Below, one piece after another: positions 1 through 16,428 of a DNA stretch of 64,000 bases. This DNA comes from Thermoanaerobaculia bacterium (lineage in GTDB: Bacteria > Acidobacteriota > Thermoanaerobaculia > UBA5066), in NCBI GenBank assembly GCA_038245905.1, contig JBBRRY010000015.1, forward strand, positions 19,361-83,360. Direction: 5' to 3'. Every line of letters begins with the position of its first letter. Position 1 is the first letter of the stretch. The notes beneath the pieces are model-generated. The model was not told where the DNA came from, searched no databases, and saw only the letters and a program-made list of their open reading frames with translations. The translations under genes and the position numbers were made by a program.

Positions 1-162
1 TTCGTCATCGCCGAGGCGCGCGTCGAGAACGCGGACGCGCTGCTCCGGCCCGGAATGCTCGGGAAAGCCAAAGTTTCGACGGGACGCCAGCGGCTTCTCC
101 GCGCCCTCCTCCGCAAGCCGGCGCGCTGGTTCTGGGTACGGCTCTGGCCTCTCCTGCCGTGA
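1..162 (+). CDS. C-terminal end (partial) of a HlyD/RND periplasmic adaptor protein
   Basis: Frame 1 reads FVIAEARVENADALLRPGMLGKAKVSTGRQRLLRALLRKPARWFWVRLWPLLP*. LRPGMxGxAK is the typical adaptor C-terminus. The stop overlaps the next start (GTGA). Confidence 0.8.
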   Translation, partial: FVIAEARVENADALLRPGMLGKAKVSTGRQRLLRALLRKPARWFWVRLWPLLP

Positions 163-2354
163 GCGCAGCTGCGCCGGACCCGGTCTCGCGGTACGTTGCG
201 GCCGCCCGCGGCGGACGCGGCGCGGCGGCTCTCGCCGCGCGCCACACCCCTCGGCAGGACCACCCCGCCCTTCGGGCGGACCTCGTCATCCGCCGCCAGG
301 TGCGAATCGGCGAGGTCACCTGGGTCGTCAAGCAACCGGAGGCGAACAAGTTCTACAACTTCGAGGACGCCGACTGGACCCTCATCGAGCTTTTCGACGG
401 AACGCGGAGTCTCACTGAAATCCGCGAGGAGTACTGCCGGCGGGTCCCGGGAGGCGAGATCGCCTTCACCCTCATCCTCGACTACCAGGAGATGCTGCAA
501 AGGATCGAGTTCCTGGAGCAGTCGGCGGCCGAGAAGAACCTCCAGCTCCTGTCGAAGTTCAAGACCCTGAGGCAGAAAGCGGCGGAGGAGCGCGCGGAGG
601 GTTTCAACATCCTCTTCATGCTCTTCAAGGTCTTCGACCCCGACCGGATCCTCAATCGGACGATCCGGTACGTCCGCTGGCTCTGGAGTCCCCCCGTCGT
701 CGCGGTCGCCTGTGTCGCGTTCCTCTTCACGATCGGTGTCTTCGCGGCGCGCTTCGACACGATCTGGGCCCAGACGATCGAGCTCTACTCGTTCCTGAGA
801 AAGCCGTTCTGGGACTTCGTCCAATTCTGGGTCATCCTGACCACGATCGGCTGCATCCACGAGTTCGGTCATGGCTATGCCACGAAGATGTACGGGGGCG
901 AGGTCCATGACATGGGGATCGCCCTCCTCTACTTCATGCCTGCCTTTTACTGCGACACGACGGACTCGCTCCTCTTCCCGAGCAAGTGGCAGAAGCTGAC
1001 GGTCACGGTGGCGGGGATCTACATCGAGGCGATCCTCTGCACGATCGCGACGGCGCTCTGGGTGGCGAGCTACCCCGACACGCTTCTCCACGAGCTGGCC
1101 TACAAGACGATGCTCTTCACCGGGGTCTCGACGATCTTCTTCAACATCAACCCCCTCGTGAAGATCGACGGCTACTACGCGCTTTGCAGCCTCACCGAGA
1201 TCCCGGAGCTGCGCGAGGAGTCTTTCCGCTGGATGGGCGCGATCTTCCAGCGCCACATCCTCCGCCTGAACGTCGAGGTGCCGGTCGTGTCGCGGCGGAA
1301 GAGGCGGATCTTCCTGATCTACGGTCCGCTCGCGCTGGGCTACATCGGTTTCATCATGGCGTTCATCACGAAGCTCCTCGACAACTTCTACTCGAAGGTC
1401 GTCCCGGAGCTGGCCGTCGTCCTCCTCCTCGTCACGCTCTACTTCTTCTTCCGGAAGAGGGTCCGCCTCGTCCTCCGGATCTCCCGCCTCTTCTATCTCG
1501 ACAAGAAGGAGCTCGTCATGTCGCCGCGCGCCCGTCTCCCTCTCCTTGCTGCCGCCGCCGGCCTCGTCCTCTTTCTCGCCGTCCCCTGGGGCCGGCGGAC
1601 GATCAGGATGGACGCCGTCCTCGAGCCCGCCGCGTCGGTGAAGGTCGAGGCCCCGGAGGACGGAGTCGTGCGGGAGGTCTTCGCGCGCGAAGGGGACATC
1701 CTGCGGGCGGGCCAACCGCTTTTCCGGATCGAGAGCCCCGGCGTCGTGGCCGATTCCGCGTCCCTCTCGGCCCGCCGCGCGGGGGCTGCCGACGAGATGG
1801 GAAGGAGCTTCCGGTCCGGAGACGCCGGGGAGGTCTATCGGGCCGAGCGGAAGGAGGGGGCGGCCGCAGCCGGTCTTGCCCTCGACACGGCGCGCACGGC
1901 GCGACTCTCCGTGCTCAGCCCGATGGACGGGCGTCTCCTTTCGGAAGGCGCGGAAAACCTCGTCGGCAGGTGGGTTACGGCAGGAACCGTTCTCGGAACA
2001 GTTGGCGCCACGCGGCAGCTCACGGCAGTATTCCCGGTCTCGGAGCGCCTTCTGACAGACCTTGTGGTCGGAGCGCCGGTTTCGGTGCAGCTTCGCGCGC
2101 GCCCGTTCCACATCCTCCACGGCACGATTGTTTCCATAGCTCCCGCGTCTCAGGCCGCTTCGTCCGACACCCCCCCGGCACTCCGCCCGTCCGAAACGCC
2201 CGGCCGCATCGTGGCTGTGGCGCGTTTCGAAAATCCCGACGGCAGCCTGAAGCCGAGGCTCGAAGGGAGGGCGAAGATCAGGGGGCCTCGGAGCTCGCTC
2301 CTCGGAGAGGGCTTCCGGATCCTCTCCCGTTGGCTCCGCGCGATCGCCTGGTGA
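159..2354 (+). CDS. PqqD/RRE-like domain + M50 (site-2) zinc metalloprotease + HlyD adaptor fusion
   Basis: HEFGH (HExxH) and NINPLVKIDGY (NPxxxxDG) M50 motifs among TM helices; N-terminal ~90-aa segment 'TWVVKQPEANKFYNF...LFDGTRSLTEI' resembles PqqD/RRE; C-terminal APEDGVV...SPMDG lipoyl/hairpin and LKPRLEGRAKI adaptor end. Confidence 0.85.
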   Translation: MSAAAPDPVSRYVAAARGGRGAAALAARHTPRQDHPALRADLVIRRQVRIGEVTWVVKQPEANKFYNFEDADWTLIELFDGTRSLTEIREEYCRRVPGGEIAFTLILDYQEMLQRIEFLEQSAAEKNLQLLSKFKTLRQKAAEERAEGFNILFMLFKVFDPDRILNRTIRYVRWLWSPPVVAVACVAFLFTIGVFAARFDTIWAQTIELYSFLRKPFWDFVQFWVILTTIGCIHEFGHGYATKMYGGEVHDMGIALLYFMPAFYCDTTDSLLFPSKWQKLTVTVAGIYIEAILCTIATALWVASYPDTLLHELAYKTMLFTGVSTIFFNINPLVKIDGYYALCSLTEIPELREESFRWMGAIFQRHILRLNVEVPVVSRRKRRIFLIYGPLALGYIGFIMAFITKLLDNFYSKVVPELAVVLLLVTLYFFFRKRVRLVLRISRLFYLDKKELVMSPRARLPLLAAAAGLVLFLAVPWGRRTIRMDAVLEPAASVKVEAPEDGVVREVFAREGDILRAGQPLFRIESPGVVADSASLSARRAGAADEMGRSFRSGDAGEVYRAERKEGAAAAGLALDTARTARLSVLSPMDGRLLSEGAENLVGRWVTAGTVLGTVGATRQLTAVFPVSERLLTDLVVGAPVSVQLRARPFHILHGTIVSIAPASQAASSDTPPALRPSETPGRIVAVARFENPDGSLKPRLEGRAKIRGPRSSLLGEGFRILSRWLRAIAW

Positions 2355-2364
2355 CCGTAAACAC

Positions 2365-2392
2365 GAGCGCCCCGGCCGGAGCCGGGGCGCTC
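2365..2392. terminator. Hairpin between convergent genes (likely intrinsic/bidirectional terminator)
   Basis: GAGCGCCCCGGC-cgga-GCCGGGGCGCTC, a perfect 12-bp stem; followed by GTGTTT on the minus strand. Confidence 0.65.
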
Positions 2393-2414
2393 ATGGACGC
2401 GGGGAGATGCGCCG

Positions 2415-2819
2415 TCAGTCGGCGTTGTCCGTCGCCCGCGCGTTCAGGATTTTGGGGGCCGCCTGCGTGCGGGCCGCGGTAACGCGGGGGGCCGCCTGCG
2501 CGCGGGCCGCGGTAACGCGGGGGGCCGCCTGGGCGCGGGCTGCGGTGACGCGAGGAGCCGCCTGCGCGCGGGCTGCGGTGACGCGAGGAGCCGCCTGCGC
2601 GCGAGCCGCGGTGACGCGAGCGGCTGCCTGCGCGCGCGCCATGTTGACGCGGGGGGCCGCCTGCACACGGGCGCTCGTGACCTTGGCCGAAGTCGTCGGC
2701 GTCATGGCGGGGTTGTTGCCGAGATTGCTGACGCGGATCTCACCGACGGCCTGACCGGTCGCCTGCTTGATCTTCGCCTTCTGCTCGTCGGTCAGCTTGA
2801 TCCGTACTTCGTTTGCCAT
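2415..2819 (-). CDS. 134-aa Ala/Arg-rich tandem-repeat protein; candidate multi-core peptide precursor or export substrate
   Basis: ATG at 2819 with AGGAGG RBS; 44-aa unique N-terminus (MANEVRIKLTDEQKAKIKQATG...) followed by 7 full plus 1 degenerate 11-aa repeats (PRVTAARAQAA). Confidence 0.8.
   Translation of the reverse strand: MANEVRIKLTDEQKAKIKQATGQAVGEIRVSNLGNNPAMTPTTSAKVTSARVQAAPRVNMARAQAAARVTAARAQAAPRVTAARAQAAPRVTAARAQAAPRVTAARAQAAPRVTAARTQAAPKILNARATDNAD
2424..2687 (-). repeat. 33-bp coding tandem repeat, 7 copies plus 1 degenerate
   Basis: Unit approx. gcctgcgcgcgggccgcggtaacgcggggggcc on the + strand; no spacers; most variation among the central copies is synonymous. Confidence 0.95.
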
Positions 2820-2882
2820 GGTGGCCTCCTCTTTCTTTCGTTCTTCCGTTCTCGTTGTCCCTGGCTTGGGGCGCAATCTCAA

Positions 2883-2900
2883 TTGCAAAGAGGGGGCCAG
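2883..2900 (-). promoter_or_regulatory. Sigma-54 (-24/-12) promoter for the repeat protein
   Basis: Minus strand CTGGCCCCCTCTTTGCAA has exact GG-N10-GC spacing with TTGCA, ~65 bp upstream of the ATG and next to a GAFTGA activator gene. Confidence 0.8.
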
Positions 2901-2921
2901 ACCAGTCCGGCCGCCAGAGAC

Positions 2922-2937
2922 CCGTAAGTGGTTGAGG
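2922..2937 (-). promoter_or_regulatory. Candidate IHF site
   Basis: Minus strand TCAACCACTTA matches the TCAA-N4-TTR core of the IHF consensus and lies between the promoter and the putative enhancer. Confidence 0.45.
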
Positions 2938-2973
2938 AAACGTCGAGACCGCCTCGTCGCGGTTACGCCGGCT

Positions 2974-3009
2974 CGATGACTCTTTCAACCTCGGTTGACG
3001 GATTCATCG
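2974..3009. promoter_or_regulatory. Candidate enhancer (UAS): two palindromic sites for the NtrC-family regulator
   Basis: GATGA-ctctt-TCAAC and GTTGA-cggat-TCATC together form an imperfect inverted repeat ~75-110 bp upstream of the -24 box. Confidence 0.55.
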
Positions 3010-3015
3010 GTCCGC

Positions 3016-4413
3016 TCAGAGGCGGTACTTCCGGCAGAGGTACTTCATCTGGTTTGCGTCGAGGCCGAGTGCTTCGGCGGCCCGCACCTTCACGCCTCCG
3101 GCGCGGGAAATGGCCTGGCTCACGAGCTCCCGTTCGAACCTTCCGACCGACTCGGCAAGGGAGAGGTCGGCAGAGTGCGTCGCGGCGGGTTGGGCCGGCT
3201 CCCGGGAGCCGCCGGCCCGGCCCAACGTCCCCGGCAGATGCTCCTCCCCGATCGTGTCGCCGTCCACCATGAGCGTCAGCATCTCGACGAGGTGTTCCAG
3301 CTCGCGCACGTTTCCGCGGAAGATGTGTCGCCCGAGCACCTCGAAGGCTTCGGACGAGAAGGCCTTCGGGCGGCGGCCATGGCGCTCTGCGGCCCGCGCC
3401 GTGAAGAATTCCACGAGCAAGGGGATGTCCTCGCGCCGCTCTCTCAGCGGCGGAATCCTCAGGATGACGGTGTTCAGGCGATAGAAGAGGTCATTGCGGA
3501 ACGTTCCCGCCGCCACCTGACGCTCCAGGTCTTCGTTCGTGGCCGCGACGAGCCGGATGTCGACGTGGATCGTCTTCGTCCCGCCGACCCGCTCGAAGTC
3601 GCGCTGCTCGAGGACGCGCAACAACTTGGCCTGTACGGCCGGGGATAGTGTCGCGACTTCGTCCAGGAAGAGCGTCCCGCCGTGAGCCATCTCGAAACGC
3701 CCGGGCCGGGAGGCCACGGCCCCGGTGAAGGCACCCCGCTCATGGCCGAAGAGCTCGGACTCGGCTAGCGTCTCCGTGAGCGCCGAGCTGTTCACGGCTA
3801 CGAACGGCCCGTCCCGGCGAGTGCTCCCCCGGTGGATCGCTTCGGCCACGAGCTCTTTCCCCGTTCCGCTTTCACCGGTCACGAGGACGGTCGCGTCGGT
3901 GGGGGCCACCTTCTCGATGGCGGCGAAGAGCCCGCGCATGCTTGGGCTCTCGCCCACCAGCCCGCCGTACGACCCACGCTTGAAGATCTCCTCCTTCAGC
4001 GCCCGGTTTTCAGCCAGGATGCGGTGTCGCTCCAAGGCTCGCCCGAGAACGAGGAGCAGCTCCGACTTCTCGAAGGGCTTCCGGAAGAAATCGAATGCAC
4101 CCAGCTCGACGGCTTTCAGCGCCCAGCGGCGCTCCGCCTCCGCCGTCATGACCACGACCGTGGCGGCCGGCTGGCGCTGCCGAATGGCCCGCAGCAGACG
4201 GAGCCCCTCTTCCGCCTCGCCCGACGGCGGGAGCCGGAGGTCGACGAGGTAGACGTCGGGCTCGAGCTCGGCCAGCTTGAGCCCCGCGGCGGCGTCCCCT
4301 GCACTGTGGACTTCGAACCTGTCCTTCAGAGCCCAGAGGAGCTGGTCGCGCAGGAGCGGATCGTCTTCCACGACGGCGAGGCGCCCCTCCACCGTCTTTT
4401 GGACCACGCCCAC
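3016..4413 (-). CDS. Sigma-54-dependent response regulator (REC-AAA+-HTH), PrsR/NtrC-like
   Basis: VVEDD and DLRLP receiver motifs, GESGTGKE Walker A, GAFTGA loop, LFLDEV Walker B, Fis-type HTH. Confidence 0.95.
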   Translation of the reverse strand: MGVVQKTVEGRLAVVEDDPLLRDQLLWALKDRFEVHSAGDAAAGLKLAELEPDVYLVDLRLPPSGEAEEGLRLLRAIRQRQPAATVVVMTAEAERRWALKAVELGAFDFFRKPFEKSELLLVLGRALERHRILAENRALKEEIFKRGSYGGLVGESPSMRGLFAAIEKVAPTDATVLVTGESGTGKELVAEAIHRGSTRRDGPFVAVNSSALTETLAESELFGHERGAFTGAVASRPGRFEMAHGGTLFLDEVATLSPAVQAKLLRVLEQRDFERVGGTKTIHVDIRLVAATNEDLERQVAAGTFRNDLFYRLNTVILRIPPLRERREDIPLLVEFFTARAAERHGRRPKAFSSEAFEVLGRHIFRGNVRELEHLVEMLTLMVDGDTIGEEHLPGTLGRAGGSREPAQPAATHSADLSLAESVGRFERELVSQAISRAGGVKVRAAEALGLDANQMKYLCRKYRL

Positions 4414-4415
4414 GC

Positions 4416-5117
4416 CTACACCTGCCGGCCAGGCGCGGCCGGAAGCGGCAGGAAGAGACGGACGCTGGTGCCCTCGCCCTCCGCACTTCTAACCTCGACG
4501 TCGCCCCGGTGGTGGCGCAGGATGCGGCGCGCCGTGTAGAGACCGAGTCCCACGCCTCCGGGCTTCGTCGTCTGGAACGGCCGGAACAGGCGCCGCCGCA
4601 CGAACTCTCCCGACATCCCGGGCCCGTCGTCCTCGACGTCGACCACGGCGAAGTCTCGCGCCCCTCGCCGCTCGAGGCTCGTGCGTACCGTCACGCAGCT
4701 CTTCGCGGCCTCCTGCGCGTTCTGAATCACGCCCTGGATCGCCTCTTGCAAGTAGTAAGGGTCGCCCCAGAGCCCGGGGACCTCGGCGAAGGTCGCGTTC
4801 ATCCGCGGTGTCGACGCCCGCCCCCGGGGGTGGCACGTGTGCAGGGCCTCCCGGATCAGGTCGTTCAGATCGAGCGGCACCTTGATGAGGACCGAGTCGC
4901 GATGAGCCGACCAGCTTCTCGCGATCCCGTCGAGCTTCTGGACGGTGGATTGCAGGAGGTCCGTGGCGCTGCGTTTGAAATCCGGATCGCCGTAGTGCTC
5001 CTCCATGTTCGACAGGAGAAGGCTGAGGCGGAGCTCGAGGTTCCGGATGTCGTGGATGAGGACGGAGTCCTTCGTGGCGCGGATGCGTCGACGCGGGGCA
5101 GCCGTGCGTGTCGCCAT
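4416..5117 (-). CDS. Histidine kinase lacking a sensor domain, PrsK-like catalytic core
   Basis: H-box LIHDIRNL..LSLLLSN.E.H.GDPDF resembles PrsK; N box QNAQEA, G1 DDGPGM, F/G2 LFRPFQTTKPGGVGLGL; no TM or input domain. Alternative GTG start at 5141. Confidence 0.88.
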   Translation of the reverse strand: MATRTAAPRRRIRATKDSVLIHDIRNLELRLSLLLSNMEEHYGDPDFKRSATDLLQSTVQKLDGIARSWSAHRDSVLIKVPLDLNDLIREALHTCHPRGRASTPRMNATFAEVPGLWGDPYYLQEAIQGVIQNAQEAAKSCVTVRTSLERRGARDFAVVDVEDDGPGMSGEFVRRRLFRPFQTTKPGGVGLGLYTARRILRHHRGDVEVRSAEGEGTSVRLFLPLPAAPGRQV

Positions 5118-5121
5118 GGTT

Positions 5122-5904
5122 TCAGGGCCGGGAAGGCGCACGGAACGTGAGCCGGACCGCCATCCCCGGCCGCAGTATTTTTTTCGGATCGTGCTTCACC
5201 CGCACGATCACCTGCACCGTCCCGCTGCCCGGATCGATGACGGGGCTGATGAACGAGACGCGCCCGCTCGAGCGTGCGTCCGGGAAATCCGGAGCCTCCA
5301 CGGTCACTTCGTCACCGGTCTTCACGGTCTGAAGGCCGGAGGCCGGCAGATAGGCGCGCGCCAGAAGCGGCTGGAGCGCCATCACCTTGAAGAGCGGTTT
5401 GCTCTCTTCGAGCGTGAACTTTTCCCCCACGCGCGCGTAACGGTCCGCCACGATCCCGTCGAAGGGAGCGCGCACCACGGACCGGTCGATCACGAGTTTC
5501 GCCCTCTCCAGCTCCACGAGGGCCAGCTCGTGTCGCGATCTTCTCTGCTCGAACTCGGCCTCGCTCGTCAGATTCTGGCGGCGCAGCTCCTCGTACCTTT
5601 TCAGGTCCGCGAGACTCACGGCGAGCGTCTCCTCCGCGGCTCTCAGATCCAGGCGGAACTCGCGCTGGTCCAGCGTGGCGAGCGGCTGCGACTTCCGCAC
5701 GAGCTCGCCCCGCTCGACCTGGATCGAGTCGATCACGCCGCTGACCCGAGTCGTCACCGTGACTTCCTGCTCGACCATCAGGTTCGAGGCGACGGTGAGC
5801 GGCGCAGGAAGCGCCGGCGCCGGCAGAGCGGCGCTGGCCCTCGCGAGCGCAAGGAGGGAGACGGCGATGAACGCCCGACCGGTAAGCCGGATTGAGTCGC
5901 GCGT
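5122..5904 (-). CDS. Efflux RND/HlyD periplasmic adaptor subunit with signal peptide
   Basis: SGVIDSIQVERGELVRKSQPLATLD, VRAPFDGIV, ISPVIDPGSGT and LRPGM motifs. Start placed at ACG 5904, 8 nt after GGAGG (see findings). Confidence 0.85.
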   Translation of the reverse strand, partial: TRDSIRLTGRAFIAVSLLALARASAALPAPALPAPLTVASNLMVEQEVTVTTRVSGVIDSIQVERGELVRKSQPLATLDQREFRLDLRAAEETLAVSLADLKRYEELRRQNLTSEAEFEQRRSRHELALVELERAKLVIDRSVVRAPFDGIVADRYARVGEKFTLEESKPLFKVMALQPLLARAYLPASGLQTVKTGDEVTVEAPDFPDARSSGRVSFISPVIDPGSGTVQVIVRVKHDPKKILRPGMAVRLTFRAPSRP

Positions 5905-5945
5905 GACTTTTTCCTCCAGGGTGTCTGGAACGGAATGATACCGAA

Positions 5946-7172
5946 TCAGGCGGGCGTGAGCGCGCGCACGAGGCGCTTGAGGGCCTCGTAGAAAACACCA
6001 GGCGGCGGCAGGAGGCTGACGACGACGAACGCCTCGAAAGGGAACTCGTAGAAATAGCCGGGCTGGACGAGCAGATCGTGTGATTCGAGGAGATCGAGGA
6101 CGAGCTCCTCCTCGGGGCGGACAGCCGGCACGCGGAGGCACGCGGCCCAGCCGGCCCGGACGGGTAGGACCGTAACACCGCCACCCGCGGGGAAGGCAGC
6201 CTTGAGCGCGCGCTCGTTGCGAAGCACGCGCGCCCAGATCGCTTCCGCCGTCCCGCGCCCGTACTCCAGAAGCCTGGGGAGCGCGAGCTGCACGGGCGTC
6301 GAGACGGAGAGATACGAATCCGCAACCCACTCGAGGCGCTCGATCGCCTGCTCGAGGAGCCCGGCGGGTCCATTCGCGAGTATCCATCCGAGCTTCATCT
6401 GCGGGAGGCCGGCCGACTTGGAGAGCCCGCCCAGCGAGAAAACGAGCGCTTCGGGCGCGTTCGCGGCTGCGGCCACGCGCACGTCGCCGGGCCGGTCCGA
6501 GTAGCGATAGTCGACGAACACCTCGTCGGAGACGACGGCGAACCGGCGCTCCTTCGCCAGCGTCATGAGATCCGACAGCTCCGCGCCAGAGAGGGAGGTG
6601 CCCGTCGGGTTGTTCGGATTGACGACGACCACGGCCGCGACGCGACGTCCTTCCACCTCGACGCGCCGCACTTCCGCCTCCACGGCCGCCGCGTGGAACG
6701 CGAAGCCGTCATCGCTCGCGAGCGCGTAGCGGCGCAGCGACAGGCACTCGAGCTCCGCGAGGGTGTCGAGAAGCGGGTAGGACGGCGCCGGCACGAGGAC
6801 GACGTCGCCGGGATCGCCCACCAGCTTGAAAAGCCAGCCGTAGGCTTCGCTCGACGAGGCCGTCAGGACGATCTGGTGCGGGGGCGCGAGAACGCCGTGC
6901 AACGCCGCGTAGTAGTTGCTCACGGACGTGCGCGCCGCGAGCAGTCCCCTCGGATCGGGTGCATACGAGAGGCCGCGGGGATCGGAGAGAGCCGCGAGAA
7001 TGCGCGCGTCCGGCGCCGACGCAGCGTTGTCGAAGAGGTCGGCTTCGCCCGAACGCAGAGAGACGGCGGTCGGATTCGACACGGCGAGATCGAGGAACGG
7101 GCGCGTTCGCGCCGCGACCGCGCGCGTCAGGCGGTTCACGTCGCGGGGGGCGGGGATCCGCTGCGAGAACAT
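5946..7172 (-). CDS. PLP-dependent aminotransferase class I/II
   Basis: NPNNPTG, SDEVF and GLSKS(K-PLP)...KLGW motifs. Confidence 0.92.
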   Translation of the reverse strand: MFSQRIPAPRDVNRLTRAVAARTRPFLDLAVSNPTAVSLRSGEADLFDNAASAPDARILAALSDPRGLSYAPDPRGLLAARTSVSNYYAALHGVLAPPHQIVLTASSSEAYGWLFKLVGDPGDVVLVPAPSYPLLDTLAELECLSLRRYALASDDGFAFHAAAVEAEVRRVEVEGRRVAAVVVVNPNNPTGTSLSGAELSDLMTLAKERRFAVVSDEVFVDYRYSDRPGDVRVAAAANAPEALVFSLGGLSKSAGLPQMKLGWILANGPAGLLEQAIERLEWVADSYLSVSTPVQLALPRLLEYGRGTAEAIWARVLRNERALKAAFPAGGGVTVLPVRAGWAACLRVPAVRPEEELVLDLLESHDLLVQPGYFYEFPFEAFVVVSLLPPPGVFYEALKRLVRALTPA

Positions 7173-14164: not shown

Positions 14165-16428
14165 CGTCCCGTCTTCCATGCCACGAAGAGGTCTTCCGGG
14201 AGGAGCGGCAGGTCGTCGCGGACGATCCCCGTCGCATGCTCGATCGCGGCGGCGATCGCGGGCGCGCCGCCGTCCATCGGCAGCTCTCCGATGCCTTTCG
14301 CGCCGCCTCCGGGCCCTCTGGAATAGGGATCCTCCACGAGAACCGTCGTGAAGCGGGGCGCGTCGATGCTCGTGGGTACGATGTAGTTCGTCATGCGGGC
14401 ATTGAGGATCTTCCCGTCCTTGAGGACGACCTTCTCGTTCAGGGCCCAGCCGATCGCCTGCAGCGTTCCTCCCTCGATCTGCCCCTTGCACATGAGGGGA
14501 TGAATCGCCTTGCCGACGTCCTGCGCGGCCCAGAAACCGATAACCGTCGTCTCGAACGTGTCGAGGTCCACCTCGACCTCGGCGATGTCGCAGCCCCAGC
14601 CGAAGACGGGATAGGCGTCGCCGCGGTAGGTCGCGTCGTCCCAGACGAAATCCGCCGGTGTTTCGTAGGTCTTCTCGGAGATGACGGTTCCTTCGTGCGC
14701 GATCAGGCGCCGCGCGGCGTCATCGAACGAGCCCCCCTGTTTCTGCCGGTTTTGCTCGATACGCGCGAAGAGGTCGCGCGCGGCGTGCTCGAGGATCGAG
14801 CCGACGATCATCACCGTTCGGGACGCCACGGTGGGCCCCGAATCGGGGACGGTCGCGGTGGACGGCGTCGCGAAGTCCACCCGATCCATCGAGACCCAGA
14901 GCGCCTCGGCCGCGATCTGCCGGAAGACTGTCTCGGTACCCTGGCCGATGTCCGTGGATGCGGTGCGGATTCGGAAACGCGGCTTCTTCTCCGTGAGGAG
15001 CTGAAACATGTCGATCGCGACGCGGCCCTTCAGCTTGCGCTCGCCCGAACCCGTGAATCCCGCGCCGTGGAGGAACACGCTCGCGCCGATTCCGCGCGCC
15101 TTTCGGGACGCGGAGCCCCCTGGGGCGGGCCGGCGAAGAATCGCTGAGACGGGCCGCGCCGCCGCGGCCTGACCGAGCGTCTCGCGCTTCCGTTCCCAGC
15201 CGCTCGCTTTCCGCGCCTCCTCGACGCAGCGCTGGACCCCGACGGACTCCTTCAGGAACTGGCCCGTCGGCGTCGTGTCCCCGACGCGGAGGAGGTTCTT
15301 CTCGCGCAGGGCGAGCGGGTCGGCCGACAGCTCGCGCGCGATCCGGTCCAGGTGCCTCTCGATCGCCCAGATCGTCTGCGGGGCTCCGAAGCCGCGGAAG
15401 GCGCCGTTCGGTGGCGTGTTCGTGGCGACCGCGATGGCCTCGATCGAGACGTGCTCCCATCGGTAGGCGCCGGCCGCGTGGAGAGCCCCGCGCGACAGAA
15501 CGACCGGCGTGAGGGTGACGTACGCACCACCGTCCATGACGATCCGAATTGACACGGCCGACAGGTTTCCCTCGCGATCGCAGCCCGACGAAATCGTCAC
15601 CTCCGACGGATGGCGTTTCGTCGTCGCCTCGATGTCTTCCTGCCGGTCGTAGATCATCTTCACGGGCCGGCCGCTCTTCTTCGCGAGGAGGAGGGCGTGA
15701 AGAGCGAGGAGCGTGGGGTACTCTTCCTTTCCCCCGAAACCTCCACCCGTGACAGCTTGCGTCACGTCCACGTGCGCGTCGTCCAGGCTGAACGTGCGCT
15801 TGACGCCCTTGTGTACGTAGAACGGGCACTGCAGCGAGCCCACGAGGTGGGCGCCGCTCGCGTCCCAGAAGGCGAGCATCCCCTGCGGCTCGATGTAGAG
15901 CTGCTCCTGGTGGTGCGTGCGGTACGTACCGGAGAGACGCACGGCGCTCTCGGCGATGGCCTTCGCCGCGTCGCCCTTCGAGATCCGGTAGGTGGCGAAG
16001 ACATTGTCGGGGCCGTGAATCTGTGCCTTGCGTTGGAGCGCGTCGGCGACCGTCAGGACCGGCGGGAGCGGGTCGATCTCGGGCGTGAGGGCGCGAAGCG
16101 CGCGGGCGAGACGCACCGGGTCCTCGGCCGCCACGAGCGCGATCGGCTCGTACGCGTGGCGGACCTCGTCCGATGCGAGGACGGGCTGGTCCTCCTCGAT
16201 GAGCGCCACGACGTTCACGGGCACGTCTTCCGCGGTCACGACCGTCACGCCGGTCCAGTCGAAGGAGGGATCCCGCCGGATGCCGCGCAGGCGGCCGCGC
16301 GCCACGGGGCTGCGGAGCGTCGCGCCCAGGAGGACGCCCGGCCGCGTGAGATCGTCGACGTAGCGGGCCGTCCCGGCGACCTTGGCCGGTCCATCCGCGC
16401 GCGGAACGCTGCGGCCGACGAGCGCCAT
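14161..16428 (-). CDS. Xanthine dehydrogenase family molybdopterin-binding subunit
   Basis: KVAGTARYVDDL, GGGFGGK, GAFRGFG, GQIEGG and KGIGE motifs; start MALVGRS at 16428. Confidence 0.93.
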   Translation of the reverse strand: MALVGRSVPRADGPAKVAGTARYVDDLTRPGVLLGATLRSPVARGRLRGIRRDPSFDWTGVTVVTAEDVPVNVVALIEEDQPVLASDEVRHAYEPIALVAAEDPVRLARALRALTPEIDPLPPVLTVADALQRKAQIHGPDNVFATYRISKGDAAKAIAESAVRLSGTYRTHHQEQLYIEPQGMLAFWDASGAHLVGSLQCPFYVHKGVKRTFSLDDAHVDVTQAVTGGGFGGKEEYPTLLALHALLLAKKSGRPVKMIYDRQEDIEATTKRHPSEVTISSGCDREGNLSAVSIRIVMDGGAYVTLTPVVLSRGALHAAGAYRWEHVSIEAIAVATNTPPNGAFRGFGAPQTIWAIERHLDRIARELSADPLALREKNLLRVGDTTPTGQFLKESVGVQRCVEEARKASGWERKRETLGQAAAARPVSAILRRPAPGGSASRKARGIGASVFLHGAGFTGSGERKLKGRVAIDMFQLLTEKKPRFRIRTASTDIGQGTETVFRQIAAEALWVSMDRVDFATPSTATVPDSGPTVASRTVMIVGSILEHAARDLFARIEQNRQKQGGSFDDAARRLIAHEGTVISEKTYETPADFVWDDATYRGDAYPVFGWGCDIAEVEVDLDTFETTVIGFWAAQDVGKAIHPLMCKGQIEGGTLQAIGWALNEKVVLKDGKILNARMTNYIVPTSIDAPRFTTVLVEDPYSRGPGGGAKGIGELPMDGGAPAIAAAIEHATGIVRDDLPLLPEDLFVAWKTGR

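Follow-up and report, generated by a model that had tools for sequence, protein, structure and literature searches.

RRE-fused site-2 proteases are known from daptide biosynthesis. In daptide clusters, an RRE and an M50 core occur in one chain, a short leader-bearing precursor is encoded next to it, and the leader is removed by this RRE-dependent peptidase (bioRxiv 10.1101/2023.03.08.531785). In a second system, the M50 peptidase EpeP/YydH-LiaK (NCBIfam NF058609) is a membrane protein that matures a small ribosomal peptide, the epipeptide, and is thought to cleave and export it (PMC10885120). EpeP has no HlyD fusion, and its operon has a radical SAM epimerase and an ABC transporter. In type I secretion by peptidase-containing ABC transporters (PCATs), such as that of colicin V, a leader-cleaving protease is coupled to a membrane fusion protein and the TolC channel is encoded elsewhere (PMC10352776). 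Finally, Kamneva, Poudel & Ward (2015, PLoS One 10:e0129066; PMC4452313) described a module of GAF-HlyD, Peptidase_M50, HlyD-biotin_lipoyl and a secondary SecA_DEAD protein. This module was proposed to be T1SS-like, with M50 as the membrane pore and GAF as the sensor.

We analysed a locus of a Thermoanaerobaculia bacterium in a 64,000-nt stretch of contig JBBRRY010000015.1 (assembly GCA_038245905.1), hereafter the window. The locus has the three-protein core of Kamneva et al., but no secondary SecA_DEAD occurs in the locus or the genome. The main text of that study names no substrate and does not contain the terms STAS or Acidobacteria, and the sections consulted mention neither an RRE nor sigma-54 control. 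We found no paper on the cargo, the sigma-54 switch or STAS. The original prediction of an undescribed peptide secretion and maturation system was overstated with respect to the core and to the RRE-protease fusion. Compared with the daptide system, the locus encodes an additional C-terminal HlyD domain in the protease, the host is diderm, the cargo is a repeat protein without the C-terminal Thr logic, and the module has no ABC transporter, oxidative decarboxylase, methyltransferase or DUF-RRE gene. Compared with PCATs, the protease is a zinc site-2 type with a predicted RRE guide instead of a C39 cysteine peptidase, there is no ABC domain, and there are three different adaptors instead of one.

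A conserved gene module of Acidobacteriota

Positions 1-5907 of the window hold six genes of a seven-gene module, the seventh being an upstream STAS gene. The features originally described (a repeat-protein gene converging on an RRE–M50–HlyD fusion, two further HlyD adaptors, and a kinase and sigma-54 regulator) are all present, with three corrections. Conservation across loci indicates that these features are more than chance. Positions 1-162 (+) are the last 53 codons of a gene for an 806-aa protein that starts 2,259 nt upstream of the window (contig positions 17102-19522). The protein contains GAF (Pfam, 83 bits), HlyD_D23 (76 bits) and HlyD_3 (63 bits) domains, with a weak third GAF domain at aa 38-164 for a total of three, and one TM helix at aa 544-562. 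A 111-aa STAS gene (TIGR00377, 63 bits against a cut-off of 53.45) lies just before it. The original prediction had named the upstream DNA as a place to look for missing components: it holds the GAF-HlyD gene and the STAS gene, but no ABC, TolC, YcaO or peptide-modifying radical SAM gene.

The order STAS, GAF-HlyD, M50-HlyD, small gene, regulator, kinase and HlyD-only adaptor is kept in Thermoanaerobaculia loci at 50-89% protease identity. The same genes recur, rearranged, in 20 further Acidobacteriota loci at 25-39% identity. To identify additional conserved components, we clustered all ORFs of 59 loci. No other gene family recurred in the distant loci; specifically, no ABC transporter, OMF or modifying enzyme was among them.

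We considered whether the product might be a classical modified RiPP whose tailoring enzymes are unlinked or are represented by a neighbouring class I/II aminotransferase. The RRE, the leader-like head of the small protein and an M50 peptidase related to the daptide and epipeptide proteases are consistent with this possibility, as is the position of the aminotransferase gene 38 nt from the short adaptor gene, since daptides need an aminotransferase. However, the aminotransferase is adjacent only in the closest relatives (loci L003 and L012; 3 kb away in locus L004) and once in a distant locus (L072). It is missing from all other loci and did not appear as a conserved cluster in the distant loci. 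Moreover, its 25 best NCBIfam matches, of 66 families matched, include no daptide family. Finally, the tails of the small proteins have no Cys, and units such as KAT or GAPRA offer few handles for known chemistry. We consider this explanation very improbable.

The predicted RRE–M50–HlyD fusion

The gene at 159-2354 (+) encodes a 731-aa protein with matches to Peptidase_M50 (Pfam, 35.5 bits against a cut-off of 27.2) and HlyD_3 (58.8 bits). The NCBIfam daptide protease model, an RRE-site-2 protease, aligned over aa 53-431 with an E-value of 1.2e-49, although the score of 169 bits is below the family cut-off of 300. The epipeptide protease model matched more weakly (E 6e-13; 49 bits against a cut-off of 225).

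To investigate the N-terminal domain, we generated an AF2 model of aa 31-172 (pLDDT 75.9). In this model, the domain (aa 43-115; 285-503, +) folds as an RRE, a PqqD-like winged helix, with three strands followed by three helices. In a Foldseek search of the PDB, the seven best matches and 13 of the best 18 listed were RRE/PqqD structures or RRE-bearing RiPP enzymes (TbiB1, PqqD, CteB, lasso B1, ThcOx, LynD and TruD), with E-values from 2e-3 and target TM-scores of 0.61-0.72 for the stand-alone RRE chains. No fold match reached E<=1e-3, and Pfam PqqD did not match the domain even at E<=10.

The HExxH zinc site lies at aa 234-238 (858-872, +), and the NxxPxxxxDG motif of site-2 proteases at aa 329-338 (1143-1172, +). 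H234, E235 and H238 of the former and N329, N331, P332, D337 and G338 of the latter are invariant in 38 of 38 aligned relatives. The C-terminal portion, aa 478-731 (1590-2351, +), is a periplasmic HlyD-type adaptor domain with a short alpha-hairpin (aa 527-582). Consistent with this assignment, the best PDB fold matches of the full-length AF2 model (pLDDT 80.9) were the adaptors MacA, MexA, AcrA, ZneB and EmrA, with E-values of about 1e-12.

A small gene with a conserved head and a variable repeat tail

The small gene, which encodes the proposed cargo, lies at 2415-2819 (−), converges on the protease gene and encodes 134 aa. A strong Shine-Dalgarno sequence precedes the ATG. A GC-rich hairpin followed by a T-run lies between the two convergent genes at 2367-2390 and is terminator-like. 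The evidence for a terminator is weak: a consensus scan reported a stem at 2382-2369 (−), but shuffled sequences also give one such site.

The product comprises a unique N-terminus of about 44 aa, of which aa 1-33 (2721-2819, −) are a conserved, leader-like head, followed by seven full 11-aa units and a partial eighth. Tandem Repeats Finder reported a 33-nt period with 6.6 copies at 2454-2672 (−) and 88% matches, corresponding to the unit AAPRVTAARAQ. In an alignment of 28 heads, 9 columns are invariant and 5 nearly so. Differences in the head codons fall 1203/1250/3075 on codon positions 1/2/3. By contrast, the tail units differ between close relatives, with periods of 3 to 22 aa. No Pfam or NCBIfam family matched the protein at threshold, and no signal peptide or TM segment was found in it.

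We next examined the linkage of the small gene to the protease gene in both directions. Starting from the protease, all 29 of the Acidobacteriota loci with at least 0.7 kb of flank past a full-length protease gene carried a head-plus-repeat ORF converging on it. Starting from the head, an HMM hit 19 of 401 Acidobacteriota genomes at E<=1e-3. In 16 of these, the hit lies within 2.5 kb of the RRE-M50 gene; 2 genomes have both genes on different contigs of fragmented assemblies; and 1 genome (83% complete) has no M50 match. Of four weaker hits, one is co-localised and the other three lie in long or interrupted frames in genomes without an M50 match. Of the 61 genomes with an RRE-M50 relative, only 19 show this head type. 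Other head types were found in 20 loci, by eye rather than by a blind test. In the Gemmatimonadaceae and Bacteroidota loci, we recognised no such small gene.

The tails suggest no single role for the product. In Thermoanaerobaculia they are Ala/Arg/Lys/Pro-rich and strongly basic (net charge +12 to +34), while in Pyrinomonadaceae-type loci they are neutral or acidic, elsewhere they are Gly/Met- or Ser/Pro-rich, and in some loci they are absent. The basic tails raise the possibility that the small protein is a cytoplasmic low-complexity protein, such as a nucleoid- or polyanion-binding protein or a stress protectant, that is only co-regulated with its neighbours. A weak, below-threshold match to the 11-mer repeats of apolipoproteins (30.5 bits against a cut-off of 90) could be viewed in this light, as could the start of the head, which, to our reading of the sequence alone, looks like the strand-helix of ribbon-helix-helix proteins. 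However, the variation in tail composition argues against this explanation, as does the fact that the gene follows the RRE-protease through rearrangements and down to about 25% identity. Moreover, only the head is conserved, which is the pattern of a recognition tag. We regard the low-complexity explanation as highly unlikely.

Predicted sigma-54 control

The sequence TGGCCCCCTCTTTGCA at 2899-2884 (−), 64 nt before the ATG of the small gene, is the only match in the 64-kb window within one mismatch of TGGCAC-N5-TTGCW, a sigma-54 type −24/−12 promoter element. The total of 8 matches within two mismatches is not above chance, as shuffled sequences gave a mean of 11.1. Nevertheless, the element TGG[CT]-N8-TGC lies upstream of the small gene in 29 of 29 loci, as compared to 162 of 10,238 background windows (1.6%). 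In 17 of 18 distant loci, one such element points at the small ORF. The genome contains rpoN.

The gene at 3016-4413 (−) encodes a sigma-54-dependent response regulator with REC (Response_reg, 69.5 bits), AAA+ (Sigma54_activat, 234.5 bits; containing GAFTGA) and HTH_8 (28.7 bits) domains. The nearest NCBIfam family, the PEP-CTERM-box regulator, scored below its cut-off. The gene at 4416-5141 (−) encodes a 241-aa histidine kinase in which only HATPase_c was matched (75.5 bits). It aligned, below the cut-off, to the C-terminal 200 residues of PrsK. No sensor domain was found, and a hydropathy scan revealed no TM segment. The start of the kinase gene overlaps the end of the third adaptor gene by 20 nt.

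The adaptors and a proposed route of export

The third adaptor gene, at 5122-5907 (−), encodes a HlyD-only protein (TIGR01730, 158 bits against a cut-off of 94.9) with an N-terminal signal-anchor (TM helix at aa 11-29). The N-terminus is at 5907 and not, as initially described, at 5904. The start position holds GTC here, and ATG in 3 and ATC in 5 of 8 relatives. At 5563-5598 (−), the adaptor carries an exact RxxxLxxxxxxS (RLS) motif, defined as the TolC-binding hairpin tip of MacA/AcrA/MexA/HlyD (PMC3391258). A loose form of the motif is present in 45 of 49 orthologues, as compared to 4.7% of random 31-aa windows. Only this one of the three adaptors has the motif. All three proteins have PAP-type domains behind TM anchors.

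These data are consistent with the locus being one copy of a conserved envelope module, found in soil Acidobacteria, that makes, recognises, cuts and most likely exports a small unmodified polypeptide. In this model, which we hold with moderate confidence, the kinase and the sigma-54 activator would switch on the small gene from its own promoter. The RRE domain would capture the head of the product at the inner face of the membrane, and the site-2-type zinc centre would remove the head or cut the tail into units. The product would leave through a periplasmic conduit built from the protease fusion, the GAF fusion and the short adaptor, the last of which would dock a TolC-type channel encoded elsewhere. 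The cytoplasmic GAF domains and the STAS protein would gate the machine. The gene content, domain folds, catalytic motifs, promoter and linkage of the cargo gene and machine over deep divergence are shown by our analysis, whereas head–RRE binding, cleavage, export, the outer-membrane partner and the energy source are inferred. The original interpretation, that the RRE recognises the leader and M50 cleaves it during export through a multi-adaptor channel, is thus partly supported. If correct, the module looks like an unstudied way of cutting and probably exporting peptides.

An alternative is regulated proteolysis without export, in which the RRE-M50 protein captures and destroys, or activates, the small protein in the cytoplasm as part of a signalling loop that also involves STAS, GAF, the kinase and the sigma-54 activator. 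The HlyD domains would then be periplasmic sensors or scaffolds and not a conduit. Site-2 proteases are best known for regulated intramembrane proteolysis, and the module is rich in signalling parts, including STAS, three GAF domains and a sensor-less kinase whose gene overlaps that of the short adaptor. The absence of a linked pump or ATPase and of a signal peptide in the small protein is also consistent with this view. By contrast, three separate PAP-type domains with alpha-hairpins, one with a conserved TolC-binding tip motif, are hard to explain without a channel, a variant operon includes SecA-like and TolC-like genes, and a regulator would not be expected to swap its whole tail between close relatives while staying repetitive. 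We therefore consider this alternative possible but unlikely.

The energy for export is unexplained in the proposed model, as no inner-membrane transporter or ATPase is linked. That the system possibly works without an ABC ATPase, as originally suggested, remains a possibility; the genome does not have a secondary SecA either, its single SecA_DEAD match being the canonical SecA. The adaptors could instead form a conventional tripartite exporter with an unlinked ABC, RND or MFS transporter or with the canonical SecA, with M50 only trimming the leader, as MpaP does in daptide clusters. Daptide clusters combine the RRE-protease with ABC transporters (bioRxiv 10.1101/2023.03.08.531785), and relatives in other phyla, as well as the Acidobacteriota locus L076, carry a secondary SecA ATPase in the operon. 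However, no transporter gene recurred in any of the 59 clustered loci, this genome has only a single SecA_DEAD match, and the covalent fusion of adaptor and protease suggests that the protease is itself the inner-membrane partner. This explanation is doubtful, somewhat more so than regulated proteolysis. With respect to the outer membrane, OMF genes are commonly unlinked (PMC4452313). No OMF gene lies on the window's contig, but the genome has 22 OEP-domain matches at about 12 places. In one Acidobacteriota variant (locus L076), a homologue of this protease lies next to both a secondary SecA and an OEP/TolC gene inside the operon, establishing that the SecA/OEP form exists within this phylum.

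Gene content of the locus

To examine the module predicted at the left edge of the window, we annotated region 1-5907, which belongs to a 3.8-Mb, 96%-complete assembly. Names of near-identical proteins and loci place it in the Thermoanaerobaculia, phylum Acidobacteriota. The gene arrangement described in the original prediction was present, although one coordinate required correction. Positions 1-162 (+) are the last 53 codons of a gene and are followed by a 731-aa gene at 159-2354 (+). A 134-aa gene at 2415-2819 (-) converges on the latter. The remaining genes encode a sigma-54-dependent response regulator at 3016-4413 (-), with REC, an AAA+ domain carrying GAFTGA, and HTH_8; a 241-aa histidine kinase at 4416-5141 (-), in which only the ATPase domain was recognized and a hydropathy scan found no TM segment; and a HlyD-only adaptor at 5122-5907 (-) that reached the TIGR01730 cut-off. 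This short adaptor begins at 5907, not at 5904 as originally predicted, and has no standard start codon (5905-5920). Behind a GGAGGA, the start position holds GTC in the window, ATG in 3 and ATC in 5 of the 8 relatives compared. This may reflect weak initiation of the adaptor-kinase-regulator operon or a base error in the assembly.

Tandem Repeats Finder identified a 33-nt period repeated 6.6 times at 2454-2672, corresponding to seven 11-aa units plus a partial one in the 134-aa protein. The array is open in several frames on both strands, yielding ORFs of 115 aa (2407-2754, +) and 74 aa (2444-2668, -) that mirror the repeats and are not genes. The opposite-strand 115-aa ORF was rejected because only the minus-strand frame carries the conserved head, the ribosome-binding site and the promoter. 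A terminator scan found one site, which is what shuffled sequences also gave.

We then retrieved the 19 kb to the left of the window, as called for by the original prediction. The fragment at 1-162 belongs to an 806-aa protein with three GAF domains, one of them weak, a single TM helix and a HlyD domain. A 111-aa STAS protein of the anti-sigma-antagonist superfamily precedes it. Further left lie an alpha/beta hydrolase, an acyltransferase, a TonB-dependent receptor and housekeeping genes. Among the ten long ORFs of the nearest 11 kb that were scanned against Pfam, there was no ABC transporter, TolC or YcaO, and the only radical SAM protein was an RlmN-type rRNA methyltransferase. The alpha/beta-hydrolase gene (15144-16208 of the retrieved upstream sequence, L002) precedes STAS in this genome and in the related loci L003, L004 and L012 only. 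In the window's genome, about 530 nt lie between the two genes and hold ORFs with no family match.

The protease fusion

To investigate the N-terminal region of the 731-aa protein, an AlphaFold model of aa 31-172 was built on 32 homologues (pLDDT 75.9). The model has strands at residues 13-19, 22-29 and 34-39, followed by three helices and then a long helix, as expected for the winged-helix fold of RiPP recognition elements (RREs). Against the PDB, its best matches were TbiB1 with bound leader, PqqD, CteB, another lasso B1 protein, ThcOx, LynD/TruD, TigE and a PbtF RRE, with target TM-scores of 0.61-0.72 for the stand-alone RREs. The E-values were modest: the best was 2e-3 and no match reached E<=1e-3. 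Moreover, a Pfam search of aa 1-210 at E<=10, in which HMMER filters drop most weak matches, returned no PqqD hit and only a hit of 0.11 to a winged-helix domain. The RRE assignment is therefore supported at fold level only. A complex prediction of the RRE (sequence set A1, residues 1-118) with the head of the small protein (set A2, residues 1-48) returned a score of 0.01 and was used neither for nor against binding.

The central region has the features of a site-2 protease. Pfam identified Peptidase_M50 (PF02163) at 35.5 bits against a cut-off of 27.2, and the helical core spans aa 162-474. In an alignment of 38 full-length relatives, down to 23% identity, residues H234, E235 and H238 of the HExxH motif and N329, N331, P332, D337 and G338 of the NxxPxxxxDG motif were invariant. 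The best NCBIfam match was the daptide intramembrane metalloprotease (NF041824), which aligned over aa 53-431 at E 1.2e-49 but scored 169.4 bits, below the family cut-off of 300. The YydH/LiaK epipeptide protease family (NF058609) matched weakly, with 49 bits against a cut-off of 225. The full-length model (pLDDT 80.9) places the predicted RRE first, then a helical membrane core, then an adaptor domain with a short hairpin. The best PDB matches of this model were MacA, MexA, AcrA, ZneB and EmrA.

Conservation of the module

A scan of species-representative genomes with the protease yielded 39 loci. In Thermoanaerobaculia loci at 50-89% protease identity, the order STAS, GAF-HlyD, M50-HlyD and then, on the other strand, small gene, regulator, kinase and HlyD-only is kept. 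In Pyrinomonadaceae-type and other loci, the HlyD-only gene sits between the two fusions. Twenty further loci, from genomes found in a phylum-wide search, hold the same genes at 25-39% identity.

To identify other conserved components, we clustered all ORFs of at least 90 aa from 59 loci. In the 25 distant loci, the recurring families were GAF-HlyD (22 loci), the regulator (21), M50-HlyD (23), HlyD-only (23), STAS (14), the kinase (8) and the small protein (6). Two further clusters also recurred; from their coordinates alone, we take these to be antisense ORFs over the regulator gene. No transporter, outer-membrane factor or modifying enzyme recurred.

No post-translational modification enzyme acting on the core, as in a RiPP biosynthetic gene cluster, is conserved with the module, and no decarboxylase, methyltransferase or ABC gene of a daptide gene set was found in the module. 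A class I/II aminotransferase gene (5946-7172, -) ends 38 nt from the short adaptor gene and was considered as a daptide-like tailoring enzyme. The gene is adjacent in L003 and L012 and 3 kb away in L004, and a 39%-identical one sits next to STAS in the distant locus L072. It is absent from all the other loci and was rejected as a module member because it is not conserved with the module. A modified RiPP with unlinked enzymes is the least likely of the readings considered.

The small gene and its linkage to the protease gene

Of the 39 loci, 29 are Acidobacteriota loci with a full-length protease gene and at least 0.7 kb of flank past it. All 29 contain an ORF that converges on the protease gene and starts with the same head of roughly 33 aa. 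In two of these, L033 and L036, the protease, regulator and small genes are broken into several frames; both are long-read MAG loci, and these are probably assembly frameshifts rather than decay. Five loci end too early to tell. The remaining five, distant loci L037-L041, were left out of this count; in the two of these that were examined, the Bacteroidota locus L037 and the Gemmatimonadaceae locus L038, we recognized no small head-plus-repeat gene. Across 23 heads in the same register, nucleotide differences fell 1203, 1250 and 3075 on codon positions 1, 2 and 3.

To test the linkage in the reverse direction, an HMM of the head (A2) was searched in 401 Acidobacteriota genomes. It hit 23 genomes at E<=0.01 and 19 at E<=1e-3. 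A search for the RRE-M50 part in the same genomes found 61 of 401 at E<=1e-10. Of the 19 stronger head hits, 16 lie within 2.5 kb of the protease gene, 2 are in genomes with both genes on different contigs of fragmented assemblies, and 1, on a 1.8-kb contig of an 83%-complete genome, has no protease match. Of the 4 weaker hits, 1 is co-localized and 3 lie in long or interrupted frames in genomes without a protease match. These counts include the window's own genome and the unpublished genome G024, and the 61 includes the unpublished genome G152. Without those genomes, the figures are 15 of 18 and 59 of 399. A protein atlas search with the head was not informative, as its best scores, 0.76-0.80, were within the range reached by shuffled sequences.

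Only the head is conserved, with 9 invariant and 5 nearly invariant columns in 28 sequences; the invariant head positions include V5, I7, L9, T10, Q13, I17, G22 and E27. It is followed by a short Pro-containing linker and then by tandem repeats, whose unit changes even among loci with 83-89% identical proteases. Examples are the 11-mer in the window, 22-mers, 10-mers and the 5-mer NAAPR. Further away, the units include KAT, GAPRA, LKSPS, KAMRAQ, MRAAKS, a 9-mer and an 18-mer. In Thermoanaerobaculia, the tails carry a net charge of +12 to +34 and, apart from the frameshifted L036, none has Cys. By contrast, the tails are slightly acidic in Pyrinomonadaceae-type loci. We consider it improbable that the product is a cytoplasmic low-complexity protein that is merely co-regulated with its neighbors.

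In more distant loci, other forms were seen by eye rather than by a blind procedure. In the gaps between the protease and regulator genes of L067, L070-L073 and L085, there is a second, Lys-rich head type containing KKSLI with its own repeat tails (LSKNIS, AARPA, AESKL, NSPLS and GGGMA units). In L068, L069, L075, L081 and L086, short basic ORFs without repeats lie behind the sigma-54 element.

Predicted sigma-54 control

A -24/-12-type element lies at 2899-2884 (-), 64 nt before the ATG of the small gene. It is the only site in the window within one mismatch of the consensus, although the window-wide count at two mismatches is not above chance. The element TGG[CT]-N8-TGC occurs in the 130 nt before the small gene in 29 of 29 loci, as compared to 162 of 10,238 background windows of that size in the same loci. 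In 17 of 18 distant loci, one such element in the gap between the protease and regulator genes points at a small ORF. Together with the REC-AAA+(GAFTGA)-HTH activator and the presence of rpoN in the genome, these data meet the sequence criteria for sigma-54-dependent two-component control; transcription from the element is inferred.

We also looked for transcripts. Two soil metatranscriptome runs of one study contained small shares (0.07 and 0.04) of the sampled words. One run yielded 7 short contigs, 90-95% alike, over 2733-2838 and 2890-3099, which cover the head-coding part and the promoter/regulator end, respectively; the other yielded none. As the contigs come from a relative and RNA libraries can hold DNA, this is not evidence of transcription.

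The adaptors and inferred export

Several features hint at export. All three adaptors have a TM anchor followed by PAP domains, with HlyD_3 and HlyD_D23 above cut-off in all three proteins, and the model of the protease fusion has fold matches to MacA, MexA and AcrA at E about 1e-12. The short adaptor has an exact RxxxLxxxxxxS motif at its hairpin tip, a loose form of which is kept in 45 of 49 orthologues, as compared to 4.7% of random windows. This motif is the TolC-binding tip of MacA, AcrA, MexA and, as RLT, HlyD (Lee et al. 2012, PMC3391258). It was not found in the other two adaptors. Further hints of export are the OEP-domain matches elsewhere in the genome and the SecA-like ATPase and OEP genes that follow a homologue of the protease fusion in one Acidobacteriota locus (L076).

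By contrast, no partner ABC, RND or MFS transporter was found in the window, in the retrieved upstream sequence (within the ORFs scanned) or recurring in the 59 loci. The locus does not fit a type I secretion system or a PCAT: no ABC gene is linked, and outer-membrane factor genes occur only elsewhere in the genome, which has 22 OEP-domain matches at about 12 places, none on this contig. An ordinary exporter with an unlinked motor remains a possible but unlikely explanation.

Relation to known systems and interpretation

The core triad has been described. Kamneva, Poudel & Ward 2015 (PMC4452313) reported GAF-HlyD, Peptidase_M50 and HlyD/biotin_lipoyl proteins encoded with a secondary SecA_DEAD protein, proposed a T1SS-like machine with SecA as the ATPase and M50 as the pore, and called its biological role completely unknown; a Methylobacterium extorquens AM1 operon that they name is an example of the SecA_DEAD-carrying variant. 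The three proteins are likewise encoded together here, but the genome contains a single SecA_DEAD match, the canonical one, in a 968-aa frame on another contig. The main text of that paper has no occurrence of 'STAS' or 'Acidobacteria', and the sections consulted name no substrate, RRE or sigma-54 control. The RRE-protease fusion is also in print: Ren et al. assign leader removal in daptide clusters to the daptide peptidase, and those clusters carry ABC transporters and tailoring enzymes. A review of RiPP proteases (PMC10885120), found by searching for RREs together with M50, lists EpeP, thought to cleave and export, and TglG/TmoG. Literature searches on M50 peptidases with HlyD and GAF domains, on daptides with M50, on proteins named 'putative peptide zinc metalloprotease' and on site-2 proteases with membrane fusion proteins and PqqD found nothing on an M50-HlyD fusion or its cargo, in part as judged by title and abstract. 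As far as these searches reach, the adaptor fusion read as a unit, the cargo, the switch and the SecA-less form are not in print.

The best-supported account is a sigma-54-gated, leader-guided processing and export module, which we consider about as likely as not. The gene content, the predicted folds and the motifs, the promoter element and the deep linkage of cargo gene and machine were established by the analysis. Binding, cleavage, export, the outer-membrane partner and the energy source are inferred. The original interpretation is supported only in part: that the RRE recognizes the leader and M50 cleaves it during export is inferred. Proteolysis for signaling without export is the leading alternative, although we regard it as unlikely.

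A more far-reaching and doubtful possibility is that the module represents a distinct kind of trans-envelope peptide exporter in two-membraned (diderm) bacteria. In this view, an RRE-guided site-2 protease fused to an adaptor would take the place of the ABC/PCAT motor, three different adaptors would form the periplasmic duct and, in the Acidobacteriota form, the system would work without any dedicated ATPase. Its cargo would be a family of head-tagged, hypervariable repeat polypeptides released under sigma-54 control, which could be lineage-specific extracellular signals or surface/matrix polymers. If export without a dedicated ATPase holds, it would add a new design to bacterial secretion. 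If the tails are signals or matrix components, this would bear on how abundant but little-studied soil Acidobacteria interact. Kamneva et al. is the only paper we found on the core module, and it left the substrate as well as the role unresolved. Tying the machine to an identifiable, putatively sigma-54-driven cargo gene makes that question testable, as the candidate substrate, the switch and the catalytic residues can now all be named.

Distribution of the family and a SecA-containing variant

The RRE-M50 family is large. In a library clustered at 50% identity, the RRE-M50 part found 6,341 clusters at E<=1e-10 and 1,726 at E<=1e-30. Most of the best hits are 680-750 aa long, consistent with the roughly 700 aa expected for the adaptor fusion. 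Named members come from Blastocatellia and Planctomycetota, and names and loci together show that the family reaches Planctomycetota, Gemmatimonadota and Bacteroidota. Databases call these proteins 'efflux RND transporter periplasmic adaptor subunit' or 'putative peptide zinc metalloprotease'.

A variant of the module occurs in one Acidobacteriota locus (L076:1156-9294). The operon order is a HlyD protein, a homologue of the M50-HlyD fusion, a 662-aa SecA-like ATPase (SecA_DEAD 349 bits, with a preprotein-binding domain), an OEP/TolC-family gene and then a short HlyD. A 101-aa ORF and a 1,548-aa repeat protein lie nearby.
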